From IMG/VR virus record IMGVR_UViG_3300031992_004563, positions 32,001 to 96,000 of that record: a stretch of DNA of 64,000 bases; one strand, 5' to 3'. This DNA comes from a virus (lineage: Duplodnaviria > Heunggongvirae > Uroviricota > Caudoviricetes). Shown one piece after another: positions 2,169-44,800 of this stretch; positions within the stretch are counted from its first letter, which is position 1, and the number at the start of each line of letters is the position of its first letter. The translations under genes and the position numbers were made by a program. The notes below the pieces were generated by a model. It saw only the letters and a list, made by a program, of their open reading frames with translations, made no database searches and was not told the origin of the DNA.

Positions 2169-3655
2169 TTTTTTAATATAAATTTATTAACTTTATATAA
2201 ATTTATTAATCAAAGCTTGCAATTTTTATATATGACTTTGATGTAAAAAATCTAGAAAACTATAAATTAAATTTATCTATAGAAAGTCTATACAACACTT
2301 TAGACTTTTTGAATATATAATATAATTCTTTTAAAGATAGTGACTTATCTTCTATTTGAAATTCTTCCAATGACTTCTTATAGAAGTGTCTAAAATCACT
2401 AATCCTTGGCTGAATTATATTTTTTATTTGTTCTTTAGTTCTTGCTATATATTGATTATAATATTCGTATCCTCTTCTTCCTAATTCTATAGAAGCTAAT
2501 ATCATATCTGGAAGATTTAAACTTCTATATAAAAAGTTTCCTATAAAAGAACTATATTCTGGTTTAACTTTTAATAGTTTAATATTAAATATATTACATC
2601 TCTTAGTTAAATTATTGACAAACTAGTTTCTATTCCAAGAATTGTTAACTAGTTTATTAAATTTAGCTCCTAATTCTTTATCTGAAGACTTTATATTTAA
2701 ATCTTCAATACTAACTATCTAACATTTATAATAAATTGATTTATTAATTATGTTTTTAACTATCTAGATAGTTTCATAGTTTCTCTTATTAGATATATAA
2801 ATTCTTTCTTTAGAACTAGAATTTAATCCTTTTCCTTTAAGTTTAAAGTCTTTATCATTTAGTTCTTTAATAGAATAAATTCCAGATTTAATAACTTTAA
2901 ATTCTGATTCTGATTTCCAATCAACTATAGACCAACCTATATAATTTGGATTCATATCTATTCCTAAAACTCTATTATTAATCTACTAATATTTTATATT
3001 ATCTAATTTATTTTCTTCATAACTAATATAAACATAATTCTAATCTAATTTATAAGATATTGGAAGATCTTTATTTTGTTGTCTAATATATAATTTCTTT
3101 AATATCTATTTATAATTCTATATATGAAGTTTTAGTTCTATATGAGTTTTTCTATCTGGTTTAAATATAACTGTTTCTAAATCTTCTTTAAGTTCAAACT
3201 TCTAATTTCCTTTATATGGTTTTGCTGTTCCTATAGAATATAAAGGATTTAATTTTTTATTTTCTAGAAACTAATCTCTAGATATTAAGCCTTTGCACCT
3301 TTTAATAAAATTTCCTTTTCCTCCAAATATAATTTTAGTTTTTTCAATATTAAATTTAATTAACTAATAAGCTTCTCCAATTGCAGATCTGCAAAACCAG
3401 TCATTCATCAAATCTATATTGTTTAATTGTTTAAACTTCTATTTAAGAATTGAATCAGTTTTTAAATAACTATATTCTGGTTGAAGTTCTTGTTCTTTAG
3501 ACAACTATTGATAGAAAACATGAAGCATAGAAGAATATTGTCTCTAATATTTTTGAATTAGAGATTGATATTCTTGTTCAACATCATATTTTAATTTAAT
3601 AGTTATCATTTAATTAAATTATATTATAATAAAATTTAATTTATATATTATTTAT
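2161..3655 (-). mobile_element. TnpB-only IS200/IS605-like element, copy 1
   Basis: Near-identical ends shared with 7749..9239 (2161 matches 7749; 3627-3655 matches 9211-9239); no tnpA seen. Confidence 0.75.
2206..3609 (-). CDS. tnpB: TnpB-related RuvC nuclease lacking a Zn finger, 467 aa with TAG=Gln
   Basis: About 15 in-frame TAG; RuvC-I VLGIDMNP, RuvC-II VSIEDL, VKPEYSSFIG, RuvC-III LPDMILASIELGRRG. Confidence 0.8.
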
Positions 3656-7748: not shown

Positions 7749-9239
7749 AATTGTAATTTTTTAATATAAATTTATTAACTTTATATAAATTTATTAATCA
7801 AAGCTTGCAATTTTTATATATGACTTTGATGTAAAAAATCTAGAAAACTATAAATTAAATTTATCTATAGAAAGTCTATACAACAATTTAGACTTTTTGA
7901 ATATATAATATAATTCTTTCAAAGACTACTAATTATCTTCTATTTGAAATTCTTCCAATGACTTCTTATAGAAGTGTTTAAAATCACTAATCTTTGGTTG
8001 AATTATATTTTTTGTTTGTTCTTTTATTCTTGCTGTATATTGATTATAATATTCATATCCTCTTCTTCCAAGTTCTATAGAAGCTAGAATCATGTCTGGC
8101 AAGTTTAAACTTCTATATAGAAAGTTTCCAATAAATGAACTATATTCTGGTTTGACTTTCAATAATTTAATATTGAATATATTGCATCTCTTGGCTAAAT
8201 TATTGACAAACTAGTTTCTGTTCCATAAATTATTGACTAGTTTATTGAACTTCTTTCCTTTATTTTTGTCATCACTATTTATTTTTAGGTCTTCTATAGA
8301 AACTATCTAACATTTATAATAAATTGCTTTATTAATTATGTTCTTTGCTATTTGAAGAACTTCATAGTTTCTTTTGTTTGATAGATATGTTCTTTCTAGT
8401 GAACTAGAATTTAATCCTTTTCCTTTAAAACTAAAGTCTTTATCATTAAAGTCTTTAATTGAATAAATTCCAGATTTGATAACATTAAACTAGTTTTCAG
8501 ATTTCCAATCAACTATAGACCAGCCAATATAATTTGGATTCAAGTCTAATGCCAACACTCTATTCTCTATTTGTTCATATTTAACTGATTCTAGTTTATC
8601 TTCTTCATAACTAATATAAACATAATTCTAGTCTAGTTTATATGTTATTGGAAGATCTTTAGACTATTGTCTTAAATAAAGTTCCTTTAGTTTCTATTTA
8701 TAGTTCTATAAATGAAGTTTTAATTCTATATGTGTCTATCTATCTGGTTTAAATATAATAGTTTCTAAGTCTTCTTTGATTTCAAATTTTTGATTTCCTT
8801 TATATGGTTTGCAAGTTCCAATAGAATATATTGGATTCAATTTTTTATTTTCTAAAAATTGACTTCTAGTTATTAGGCCTTTGCATCTTCTAATAAAGTT
8901 TCCTTTGCCACCAAATATAACTTTAGTTTCACTGTTAGATTTAACTAATTGATATGCTTCTCCAATTGCAGATCTGCAAAACCAGTCATTCATCAAATCT
9001 ATATTGTTTAGTTGCTTAAACTTTTGTTTAAGAATTGAATTAGATTTTAAATAACTATACTCTGGTTGAAGTTCAGTCTCTTTAGACAACTATTGATAGA
9101 AAACATGAAGCATAGAAGAATATTGTCTCTAATATTTTTGAATTAGAGATTGATATTCTTGATTGACATCATATTTTAATTTAATAGTTATCATTAAATT
9201 ATTTTATATATAATAAAATTTAATTTATATATTATTTAT
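7749..9239 (-). mobile_element. TnpB-only IS200/IS605-like element, copy 2
   Basis: Shares both ends with copy 1. Confidence 0.75.
7794..9194 (-). CDS. tnpB: TnpB-related RuvC nuclease, 466 aa with TAG=Gln
   Basis: Paralogue of 2206..3609; VLALDLNP, VSIEDL, LPDMILASIELGRRG. Confidence 0.8.
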
Positions 9240-14438: not shown

Positions 14439-14678
14439 GGAGCTTTGGCAGACATGGTGTATGCGCCGGACTGATCATAGATTAGCAACTATAATAAAGA
14501 GCTAATTATCATATGAATGGGAATTGGGATACCATCGCTTGAGATAATATCAAAATAGTGGGAGAGGAAGGTGTTCTCCATAAAGGTTGATAAAATTTTT
14601 AAAAAATTTTATAATTTAGGTTCGAGTCCTAATATGGTAACAAATCCGGTTAACGAGGTTCGAGTCCTCGAGGCTCCG
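14439..14678 (+). tRNA. tRNA-Phe(GAA) with ~167-nt anticodon-loop intron (14475-14641)
   Basis: 5' half GGAGCTT...CCGGA CTGA; 3' half AAA TCCGG...TTCGAGT...AGGCTCC. Confidence 0.8.
14506..14641 (+). ncRNA. tRNA-like element nested in the tRNA-Phe intron
   Basis: 8-bp acceptor TTATCATA/TATGGTAA, D-like arm, T arm TTAGG TTCGAGT CCTAA; no canonical anticodon arm. Confidence 0.6.
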
Positions 14679-41890: not shown

Positions 41891-41964
41891 ATCCTATTAG
41901 CCCAATCGGTAGAGGCAATAGTTTCAAAAACTATACAGTGTTGGTTCGAATCCAACATGGGATA
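41891..41964 (+). tRNA. tRNA-Leu(CAA) with short variable loop
   Basis: ATAGT TTCAAAA ACTAT; 5-nt variable loop; A73. Confidence 0.82.
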
Positions 41965-42032
41965 CAAAAGATAAATGACATTTATGGTTATTGCACATCC
42001 AAAAAGCATGTATAAAAATAAAAATAAATGTT

Positions 42033-42582: not shown

Positions 42583-43791
42583 ATGAAGTTAGTTGAACAA
42601 CATATTATAAAATCTAATCATTAGTTTTACAAAGAACTTGATAATTTATGCTTTTTATCTAAGAATCTATATAATCAAGCTCTTTATAGGATTAGACAAT
42701 AGTTTTTTGAAGATAAAACTTTTAAAAATTATTATGATTTAAATAGAGAGCTTCATGATGAAAACTAGATAGACTATAGATCACTTCCATCTAATACATC
42801 ACAAGAAACATTAAAACTAGTTAACCAAAATTATAAATCATTTTTCTAGAGTTTAAACAAACAAATTAAAGGCGTTAAAATTCCTAAATATTTAGATAAA
42901 ATTAAAGGAAGATAGATAGTTGTTTATAATTATTCAACAATATGTGGAAAAAAAGATTTAGGATTTTTTAAAATTCCAAAAACTAATTTACAATTTAAAA
43001 CTAAATAGAAAAATATTAAGCAAGTTAGAATAGTTCCTAAAAATAATTATATAGTTTTAGAAGTTATTTATGAAGCTTCTATCAAAGAATTATTAAAAGA
43101 TAATAAAAGATATATGTCTATTGATTTAGGAATTGATAATTTAGCTAGTTGTTCTAGTAATGTAACTAAATCTTTTATAATCAATGGAAAACCTGCCAAA
43201 TCAATAAATCAATATTATAATAAAAAGAAAGCTAATCTTCAATCTGAATTAAAACTTAAACAAAATAAAAATACATCAAAGCAAATATAGAATTTAACTT
43301 TAAAGAGAAACAATAAAATAAAAGATTATTTTCATAAAGCATCCAGATATATTGTTAATCAATTAGTTAACCAATCCATTAATACACTTATAATAGGAAA
43401 GAATGATGGATGGAAACAAGAGACAAATCTAGGTGTTGTTAATAATCAAAATTTTGTAAATATTCCTCATTAGATGTTTATAAATCAACTAAAATATAAA
43501 TGTCAATTAGAAGGAATAAATGTCATTGAACAAGAAGAAAGTTATACTAGCAAAGTAAGTTTTTTTGATAATGACTATATTCCAACTTATAAACAAAATG
43601 ATGAACTATTTAATCCATCTGGAAAAAGAATCAAAAGAGGTTTATATAAAACTAAAAATAATTTATTAATTAATGCTGATATAAATGGTTCATTAAACAT
43701 AATGAGAAAATATTTAAATGTAGTTTGTGATGACTTAATTAGTTTAACAAATAGAGGGTTTGTGATTAATCCAGTTAAAATTTAGTTTTAA
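42583..43791 (+). CDS. tnpB: IS200/IS605-family TnpB, 402 aa with TAG=Gln
   Basis: MKLVEQHII..SKNLYN; MSIDLGIDNL; IIGKNDGWKQ; QEESYTSK; GKRIKRGLY; INADING; several in-frame TAG. Confidence 0.9.
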
Positions 43792-43854
43792 CAAATAAAA
43801 ACTTGTGAATAGTTTTTAATATCATTTGATTCCAAATGTATCAGAAATTTATAA

Positions 43855-44028
43855 GAATTTATGCAGTCCATCGCGCCCATTCCAAAAGATATAAGAGGTG
43901 AGGAAGTTCAGGACACTTATTTGGAAGTGAAAGTCTAAGTATAGGAGGTTACCCAAATTACTGCCCCATGGTAAGACGAATAGTTAAATGATGGAAATAG
44001 GTACAGAATCCTGGCTATTACATAATTC
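43855..44028 (+). ncRNA. rnpB: Minimal RNase P RNA (catalytic core, specificity domain reduced to one hairpin)
   Basis: GAGGAAGTTCAGGA (43900-43913) pairs with ACAGAATCCTGGCTA (44003-44017) as P4; CCATC/GATGG as P2; GAATTTATG/CATAATTC as P1. Confidence 0.75.
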
Positions 44029-44060
44029 ATATATTTAATAAAAATAAATGTTTAATAATT

Positions 44061-44129
44061 ATGATACCAACATTAACAGTTTACATGCTAATTGCTATAC
44101 CTATTATCTATATAGCAATTAAAAAATAA
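44061..44129 (+). CDS. 22-aa hydrophobic peptide
   Basis: MIPTLTVYMLIAIPIIYIAIKK; single TM with basic tail. Confidence 0.4.
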   Translation: MIPTLTVYMLIAIPIIYIAIKK

Positions 44130-44197
44130 ATAAAATGGTGTTATAATTAAAATTTACAACACCATTTATTTTTATTTAAAATTAAAACCTAAACACA

Positions 44198-44596
44198 ATG
44201 AATTACAACATTCAAGAAAAGAAACACTATTTCATTGTAAATGGCGTTAAAGTTCATTGGAATTTTAAATTATTGCCTAAAGGTTTTGAAGCAATAACAT
44301 TATTTGGGCATGTTTATGATGTTCATCCAAAAAATGAATTAAAAACATTTTTAGAAACCTATTGGGGAAGAGTAATGGTTAATCATGAAAGAATTCATAT
44401 AATGCAAGCCGAATCTTTTAAACTTAGATATTTTGCATTTTATATAATATATCTATGGTGGTGGATAAAAGGTTTGTTTAAATATAATTTTAGTAATTTT
44501 GAATCATACTATAAAATTCCATTTGAAAGAGAAGCTTATCATAATGAAAAAGATTTTTATTATGATGAAGTACATTGGAAAGAATTTAAATGGTGA
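44198..44596 (+). CDS. HExxH-containing hypothetical protein
   Basis: AITLFG, NHERIHIMQ, PFEREAY. Confidence 0.75.
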   Translation: MNYNIQEKKHYFIVNGVKVHWNFKLLPKGFEAITLFGHVYDVHPKNELKTFLETYWGRVMVNHERIHIMQAESFKLRYFAFYIIYLWWWIKGLFKYNFSNFESYYKIPFEREAYHNEKDFYYDEVHWKEFKW

Positions 44597-44640
44597 TTTT
44601 TGTAATGGTCTTTACAAAAATGATCATTTATTTTTTATTT

Positions 44641-44715
44641 GCGGGTGTAGCTCAGTTAGCTTAGAGCGTCTGACTTCCAATCAGAAGGCCCTGGGTTGAA
44701 GTCCCAGTACCCGCA
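44641..44715 (+). tRNA. tRNA-Gly(TCC)
   Basis: TCTGA CTTCCAA TCAGA; T loop TTGAAGT. Confidence 0.88.
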
Positions 44716-44800
44716 CGAATGTTAAGGTAGCGCCTTAACTAGTTGCAGTTATGAGATCGCGGAATCTGCAATGAATAAAAATAATAAAAGCCGCGTACAT

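Follow-up and report, generated by a model that had tools for sequence, protein, structure and literature searches.

RNase P RNA is regarded as a hallmark of cellular life, and its two-domain design, catalytic (C) plus specificity (S), is textbook knowledge. Whether a phage can encode such an RNA, and do so with the C domain alone, is the question raised by positions 43855-44028 of the 64,000-nucleotide stretch of phage DNA analysed here (hereafter the window). Working from the letters only, an earlier annotation, the sequence-only reading, had proposed that these ~174 nt encode a miniature RNase P RNA with its S domain reduced to one hairpin, and had suggested an Infernal search with RNase P models as a check.

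That search supports the identification. The archaeal RNase P model of Rfam, RF00373 (RNaseP_arch), matches end to end over exactly 43855-44028 on the plus strand, with a score of 32.5 bits and an E-value of 4e-8 (cmscan, 196-nt search of 43845-44040), equivalent to about 1.3e-5 when scaled to the whole 64-kb window; the ends are those originally proposed. The alignment runs over model positions 1-288; at the S domain site, 2 nt stand in for 129 of them. The score falls short of the gathering score of 84 for this family, and of every other RNase P gathering score in Rfam. A scan of the whole window at gathering thresholds yielded 28 tRNA matches only and no RNase P, and a 651-nt Rfam scan at E<=10 missed the RNA, which is taken to be a filter effect. 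Our own covariance models, R1 and R2, score 207.5 and 151.6 bits respectively over the same positions, and the RNA is single-copy within the 380-kb record to which the window belongs. Single-sequence folding gave z = +0.70 on the plus strand, with 151 of 200 shuffles folding as well, and z = +0.30 on the minus strand; the minimum-energy fold departs from the fold derived from covariation at the centre of the RNA. Since the single sequence folds no better than its shuffles, the case for an RNA rests on homology and comparison and not on folding energy.

Table 1. Features at the predicted RNase P RNA locus, numbered from the first letter of the window; a slash separates the two strands of a helix.
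Feature	Position	Strand	Basis or remark
Predicted miniature RNase P RNA gene, C domain only, 174 nt	43855-44028	+	RF00373 match at same ends; own covariance models
P1	43855-43863 / 44021-44028	+	8 pairs, one bulged U; all standard
P2	43867-43872 / 43990-43995	+	covariation
P3 hairpin	43874-43900; stem 43874-43877 / 43897-43900	+	covariation
CR-I GAGGAAGUUCAGGAC	43900-43914	+	aligned to RF00373 CR-I columns
P4	43905-43913 / 44009-44016	+	8 standard pairs around bulged U (5' strand)
P5	43914-43918 / 43925-43929	+	stem closed by hexaloop AUUUGG, 43919-43924
P6-like pseudoknot	43919-43924 (AUUUGG) / 43953-43958 (CCAAAU, P17 loop)	+	covariation
P15-P17 arm	43933-43977	+	P15 43933-43936 / 43974-43977; P16/17 43944-43949 / 43963-43967
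GGU	43970-43972	+	within internal loop of P15-P17 arm
CR-IV-like AGUUAAAUGAUGG	43982-43994	+	aligned to RF00373 CR-IV columns; 3' part is P2 3' strand
CR-V ACAGAAUCCUGGCUA	44003-44017	+	aligned to RF00373; contains P4 3' strand, 44009-44016
tnpB (IS200/IS605-type)	42583-43791	+	Pfam: OrfB_IS605 8.5e-24, Cas12f1-like TNB 3e-10
Right end of tnpB element	43792-43825	+	ends ...GUUUUUAAUAUCAU; other phages' copies diverge beyond about 43825
Terminator-like hairpin	44133-44167		T-rich runs both sides; about 105 nt downstream of RNA

In the window copy every one of the 46 proposed pairs is standard (Table 1). The RNA retains P1-P5, a P6-like loop-loop pseudoknot, P15-P17 with GGU, and the conserved regions CR-I, CR-IV and CR-V; P7-P14 and P18 are absent. 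The RNase P hallmark, in which a GAGGAAAGUCC-like CR-I and an ACAGAA..GGCU-like CR-V pair as P4 around a bulged U, is present. P4 departs from the Rfam consensus (GAGGAAAGUCCGGgC and ACAGAACCCGGCUUA) at four pairs, each exchanged in both strands, and its bulged U has not moved, in agreement with the compensatory changes that had been noticed in both strands from the letters alone. The P1, P2 and CR-IV-like block picked out at the same time are likewise all present, with P1 and P2 covarying in relatives (see below). Inspection of the CR-IV-like block reveals the AG...AAUG pattern running into the 3' strand of P2. It is separated from the 3' strand of P15 by only 4 nt (GAAU, 43978-43981), so that P18 is absent. 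The GGU of the P15-P17 arm occupies the position at which bacterial RNase P RNAs bind the 3' CCA of tRNA.

The P5 hairpin occupies the place of the whole S domain (P7-P14) of full-size RNAs, and it is here that the deletion in the RF00373 alignment falls. Between the P5 strands lie six loop bases only, with no P7-P14, no CR-II or CR-III and no T-loop binding site. The proposal of a phage-borne miniature RNA is thus upheld, in a form without an S domain and with P4 altered yet paired throughout, both by the RF00373 alignment with its 129-position deletion and by the covariation fold. The particular hairpin suggested as the remains of that domain, UAUUUGGA/UCUAAGUA, can be drawn, but none of its eight pairs changes on both sides; 86.1% of its cells pair among the 33 distinct sequences described below, and 500 of 500 shuffles do as well. 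Its bases are better explained as P5, as the hexaloop pairing with the P17 loop (P6), and as P15. The S domain is wholly lost, not shrunk to a hairpin.

The comparison set comprised 46 rows including the window copy, 33 of them distinct, with lengths of 156-177 nt where complete. A P4-independent pattern gave 5 viral stretches and a CR-IV/GGU pattern gave 41 metagenome stretches; R1 matches all the stretches obtained with either pattern. The relatives come from viral contigs and from ruminant-gut metagenome contigs. Five weak R1 matches (L127, L091, L108, L139 and L160; 14-20 bits) were excluded from all counts as unconvincing. With the metagenome relatives selected by the CR-IV/GGU pattern and the viral ones by CR-I, the invariance of those blocks is partly by construction; GGU is nevertheless found in all five distinct viral-contig sequences.

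The 33 distinct rows give 1397 cells, of which 98.7% pair, and changes on both sides are seen at 31 of the 47 pairs. On none of the five measures do any of 500 shuffles come up to this, and in slid controls 24-40% of cells pair. The non-pseudoknot helices were counted on a model-fitted alignment, which works in their favour: P1 pairs in 99.5% of cells (7 of 7 modelled pairs changing on both sides), P2 in 97.2% (5 of 7) and P3 in 99% (3 of 4), while all five pairs of P5 change on both sides; pairing across these four helices is 94-99.5%. On the same alignment P15 pairs in 100% of cells and all six P16/17 pairs change on both sides. P4 and P6, which were left out of the model that built the alignment, pair without exception: P4 in every cell of 31 rows, with an A:U to G:C swap in one of them (L233), and P6 in 100% of cells with three of its six pairs changing on both sides. 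Loop-loop complementarity of at least 6 bp is seen in all 31 full-length distinct sequences, which show six core haplotypes (AUUUGG/CCAAAU, AAUGGG/CCCAUU, ACUUGA/UCAAGU and GGAUAC/GUAUCC are examples). A more diverse set of 10 rows, including forms of 191-278 nt, has 95.4% of cells paired and 24 of 33 pairs changing on both sides, and supports P1, P2, P3 and P5 too. From this comparative evidence, 43855-44028 is almost certainly a genuine RNase P RNA homologue with the fold given in Table 1.

Variation among the relatives takes several forms. The length of P3 varies, the shortest being a 3-bp stem with a GAAA loop. One sequence, found both in a viral contig (L215:323-492, plus strand) and in a metagenome contig (L232), reads ACUGAA ahead of the P4 3' strand, where nearly all others read ACAGAA. 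A 163-nt sub-clade of four metagenome loci (L247, L226, L241 and L244) has longer P5 and P17 arms, the loops of which stay complementary (GGAUAC/GUAUCC, GGGUAC/GUACCU and GAGUAC/GUACUC).

Larger phage-borne relatives were also found. The CR-I 15-mer occurs in at least 120 viral loci in the 34 of 64 parts of the viral collection that were scanned. Among the 120 CR-I loci listed, 12 also have ACAGAAUCCUGGCUA, 104-266 nt downstream, and for nine of these 12 there is a match to an RNase P family of Rfam. Two exceed the RF00010 gathering score of 100, L137 at 111.8 bits and L163 at 100.2 bits; L126 and L203 score 79.6 and L200 scores 40.2 against Rfam RNase P models, while L122, L105, L162 and L133 reach 39.6-46.6 bits against RF00373. 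The other three, the 158-nt L204, L166 and L109, have no Rfam match at E<=1. For the two closest viral relatives the scores are 45.0 and 44.4 bits, with E about 3e-10. The miniature form thus stands at the lower end of a range of sizes among phage-borne RNase P RNAs with the same P4, a range that connects it with full-size RNAs, and the larger phage relatives matching RF00010 point to bacterial type A ancestry for it. Synteny with L105 upstream of the RNA is loose and was given no weight.

The clade has so far been met in few places. Neither the window RNA nor two larger relatives had a BLAST match among GenBank phages, and no cultured phage carrying the clade was found. In four megaphage records sharing the tnpB gene of the window, BLAST matches were at chance level only and the best R1 match, 20.7 bits over 68 nt, was unconvincing. 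The published Lak-A2, Lak-C1 and Lak-B5 and a complete 504-kb relative gave no match with R1, R2 or RF00373, in a search whose positive control for R2 was the phage's own genome at 151.6 bits and whose first-look filter may miss diverged forms. A search for the clade motif in one genome each of 185,579 species produced a single match, not recognised by R1. Within the limits of the first-look filter, then, the miniature clade is restricted in its occurrence and is not shared by all Lak-like phages.

The record carrying the RNA has 380,519 bp, 28% G+C, 31 tRNA genes and a tmRNA, and is estimated to be 76% complete. With the standard code (code 11), 53.8% of the record lies in open reading frames of at least 150 aa, a share that rises to 78.5% when TAG is taken as a sense codon. 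The phage helicase shares 39.6% identity, across 99% of its length, with helicases of Prevotella Lak megaphages, and the sequencing runs in which the stretch occurs come from the gut of sheep, cattle and goats. The gain in coverage with TAG, the Lak-like helicase and the ruminant-gut runs together indicate a TAG-recoded, Lak-like ruminant-gut megaphage. Eighty-four ORFs of at least 200 aa contain three or more TAGs, TAG being apparently recoded genome-wide; among the tRNAs that ARAGORN found in these 380 kb, none has a CUA anticodon. The tmRNA gene (G000:C1:269450-269849, minus strand) lies outside the window and encodes the tag peptide GEDEYAMAA. Two near-identical TAG-recoded ORFs of 466-467 aa, at 2206-3609 and 7794-9194 on the minus strand and with 13-15 TAG each, look duplicated and are possibly mobile; neither has a PHROG family at E<=1e-5. 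In the 380-kb record, at its estimated 76% completeness, neither a full-size RNase P RNA (RF00010) nor rnpA nor 16S rRNA was found.

The window holds 30 tRNA genes, spanning 14069-46310. It had been supposed that loss of the S domain suited non-canonical tRNAs of this phage. This link does not hold: 24 of the 30 tRNAs have the canonical GTTCRA T loop, with Rfam scores of 40-74 bits, and non-standard T loops are confined to six (Gln, His, Leu-tag, Arg-acg, one Met and Gly). The tRNAs being mostly ordinary, the loss of T-loop reading cannot be pinned on odd ones. The 3' CCA is encoded in two of the 30 genes only, and its absence from the other 28 leaves the role of the conserved GGU in doubt. 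For one 94-nt tRNA (14548-14641) the anticodon called by ARAGORN is undetermined, with two letters (aa); its T loop is normal, and it may be intron-bearing or otherwise odd.

Of 45 related loci, 29 have a same-strand tRNA 2-62 nt upstream of the RNA and 23 have one 4-12 nt downstream, as judged from flanks of 300-400 nt, within which a missing tRNA does not amount to absence. The usual position of the miniature RNA is thus inside tRNA arrays. The window copy has no abutting tRNA, its nearest being a tRNA-Leu at 41891-41965, from which it is separated by the tnpB element and an ORF, and a tRNA-Gly at 44641-44716. Since no tRNA abuts the window copy, the ends of its RNA cannot come from tRNA processing there. 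A scan for terminator consensus gave one site against 0.3 expected from shuffles, and a promoter scan was without information, with 9 sites where 11.8 were expected. At 44062-44130 a hydrophobic mini-ORF of 22 codons, recognised by eye and in none of the ORF calls, lies between the RNA and the symmetric terminator-like hairpin of Table 1. The ORFs adjoining the RNA have no Pfam family. Contigs from RNA libraries of four ruminant-gut studies contain this stretch or relatives 90-99% identical to it, and an identical 1,511-nt contig from one sheep-gut RNA library covers 43196-44706. DNA may be present in such libraries, and ends, strand and level cannot be read from the contigs, which are therefore a weak hint of expression; gaps in contig coverage were given no weight.

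How does the RNA compare with RNase P RNAs already known? It resembles bacterial type A (E. coli M1 RNA, the rnpB product; RF00010) in CR-I, CR-IV, CR-V, the bulged U of P4, P1-P3, P5, the P6 pseudoknot from the P5 side to the P17 loop, and P15-P17 with GGU. Unlike that type it is phage-encoded, lacks P7-P14 and P18, has four P4 pairs swapped, and is 174 nt long, compared with the 340-420 nt given as typical of bacterial P RNA by Klemm et al. (2016, PMC4919922). Among archaea, the Pyrobaculum-type RNA (type T, type P; Pyrobaculum and other Thermoproteaceae) is described in the same source as a catalytic domain only, and for type T RNAs the models include P6 but no P18 (Mao et al. 2018, PMC5839562). 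The miniature RNA shares with them a C domain, almost no S domain, the presence of P6 and the absence of P18, a likeness of architecture, cmscan reporting only the best family of the clan (CL00002). Type T is, by contrast, archaeal and works with several archaeal proteins, whereas the present RNA belongs to a phage of bacteria. Moreover, the larger relatives match the bacterial type A model, which argues for a reduction independent of type T.

A further parallel is an engineered one. In Mao et al. (2018, PMC5839562), the C domain of E. coli alone cleaves substrates and works with the C5 protein, requiring P15-17 and a "P6-mimic" with P18 dispensable, and deletion of the S domain lowers efficiency about 500-fold on a model substrate. 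That construct, 'Eco CP RPR', has the same parts as the miniature RNA (PMC5839562). It is a laboratory deletion, about 500-fold less efficient, whereas the phage RNA is a natural conserved gene with a covarying P6. Among phage RNAs, the HDV-like theta ribozymes, which lie beside the tRNAs of recoded gut phages and have been proposed to make the phage independent of the host's tRNA-processing enzymes (Kienbeck et al. 2024, PMC10879173), share with it phage encoding, a place beside phage tRNA genes and stop-codon-recoded gut phages as carriers. They are, however, small and self-cleaving in cis, with a proposed part in 3'-trailer removal (PMC10879173), while RNase P acts at the 5' end in trans; fold and chemistry are unrelated. 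All Rfam models applied to megaphage genomes gave only tRNAs and a tmRNA according to Lui et al. (2021, PMC8172020). In the literature searched, outside which most subscription journals lay, there was no description of a phage- or virus-encoded RNase P RNA. The RNA described here is a natural bacterial-type C-domain-only RNase P RNA encoded by a phage.

As to function, the RNA is predicted to be an active ribozyme, cleaving the 5' leaders off the pre-tRNAs of the megaphage itself, and we consider this probable. It would be transcribed together with neighbouring tRNAs and, where tRNAs abut it, would be cut free by the processing of their ends. The metal-binding active site would be made up of P4 with its bulged U and of GAGGAA and ACAGAA on its flanks, and the P15-P17 arm, positioned by P6, would use the conserved GGU to dock the pre-tRNA by its acceptor end. 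Without an S domain there would be no check of the T loop, and substrate binding would lean on a protein cofactor and on acceptor-stem contacts, as in the engineered C-domain-only E. coli RNA. Given the about 500-fold loss in the S-domain-deleted E. coli RNA, such an enzyme may be weak. Use of the host RnpA is plausible, and we hold to it less firmly than to activity itself; the lack of rnpA in the record, estimated to be 76% complete, is compatible with that use without demonstrating it.

Could the RNA instead be non-catalytic, soaking up host RnpA or pre-tRNA and so disturbing or retuning host tRNA maturation? The C-domain regions around P2, P3, CR-IV and CR-V, presumably the seat of RnpA in the Thermotoga holoenzyme structure, are retained and the record is without rnpA. 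Loss of the S domain, too, strongly lowers the activity of engineered RNAs (PMC5839562). Yet a decoy would not need all the parts that serve chemistry only, and across 31 rows the bulged U of P4, GAGGAA, ACAGAA and the A-rich J5/15 are fixed or change in compensatory fashion only; the location in phage tRNA arrays also fits a processing role, and we regard sequestration as distinctly unlikely. Also unlikely, in our view, is an active ribozyme that dispenses with host RnpA, relying on an unrecognised phage protein or acting mainly in cis on its own tRNA transcript. The layout at the 23 of 45 loci where a tRNA closely follows would permit cis action, and the neighbouring ORFs without a Pfam family leave room for an unknown cofactor, but the window copy has no abutting tRNA, no conserved protein gene accompanies the RNA at the loci inspected, and its neighbours vary between them.

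The existence of larger phage versions with the same P4, and the mobile tnpB element adjoining the window copy, might suggest a decaying, functionless remnant of a formerly full-size phage rnpB. Neutral decay would break helices, whereas the 33 distinct sequences keep 98.7% pairing through many compensatory changes, two pseudoknots included, and clade size is constant at 156-177 nt; decay is very unlikely. The tnpB gene raises a further alternative, namely that 43855-44028 is the guide-RNA scaffold (omega RNA) of the element. In IS200/IS605 TnpB systems the omega RNA is located at the element's 3' end, and the stretch in question is structured; the tnpB ORF (readable only with nine in-frame TAG as sense) ends 64 nt upstream of it. 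For this gene 148 relatives were found in viral contigs and 80 kept, with up to four copies in one 121-kb contig. Seven close copies (77-86% protein identity) match the window DNA only up to ...AAUAUCAU, about 43825, and none of the seven carries the RNA. BLAST of the downstream DNA against other tnpB copies returned 43801-43828 only, and nothing of 43855-44028. The RNA lies beyond the right end of the element (~43825), and it occurs at 45 other loci without an adjoining tnpB, mostly between tRNAs. The omega RNA reading was accordingly rejected, and we give it almost no credence. The window copy of tnpB is without a hairpin of ~35 nt that other copies have just after the stop codon.

We return, then, to a phage-encoded RNase P ribozyme. 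The boldest reading, to which we give a probability of roughly 60%, is that ruminant-gut megaphages carry the smallest bacterial-type RNase P ribozyme yet seen (156-177 nt), natural, C-domain-only and buttressed by P6, that with host RnpA it takes over the 5' maturation of their own tRNA arrays, and that it is a recurrent viral gene overlooked by standard annotation. RNase P genes of this kind appear, indeed, to be systematically overlooked at default thresholds. As a natural C-domain-only RNA with the parts found sufficient in E. coli deletions, it would offer a test case for the minimal ribozyme, and its shortness makes for easy synthesis, mutational scanning and structure work. If the reading is true, large phages would bring their own catalyst of tRNA 5' processing beside tRNAs, tmRNA and a recoded genetic code.
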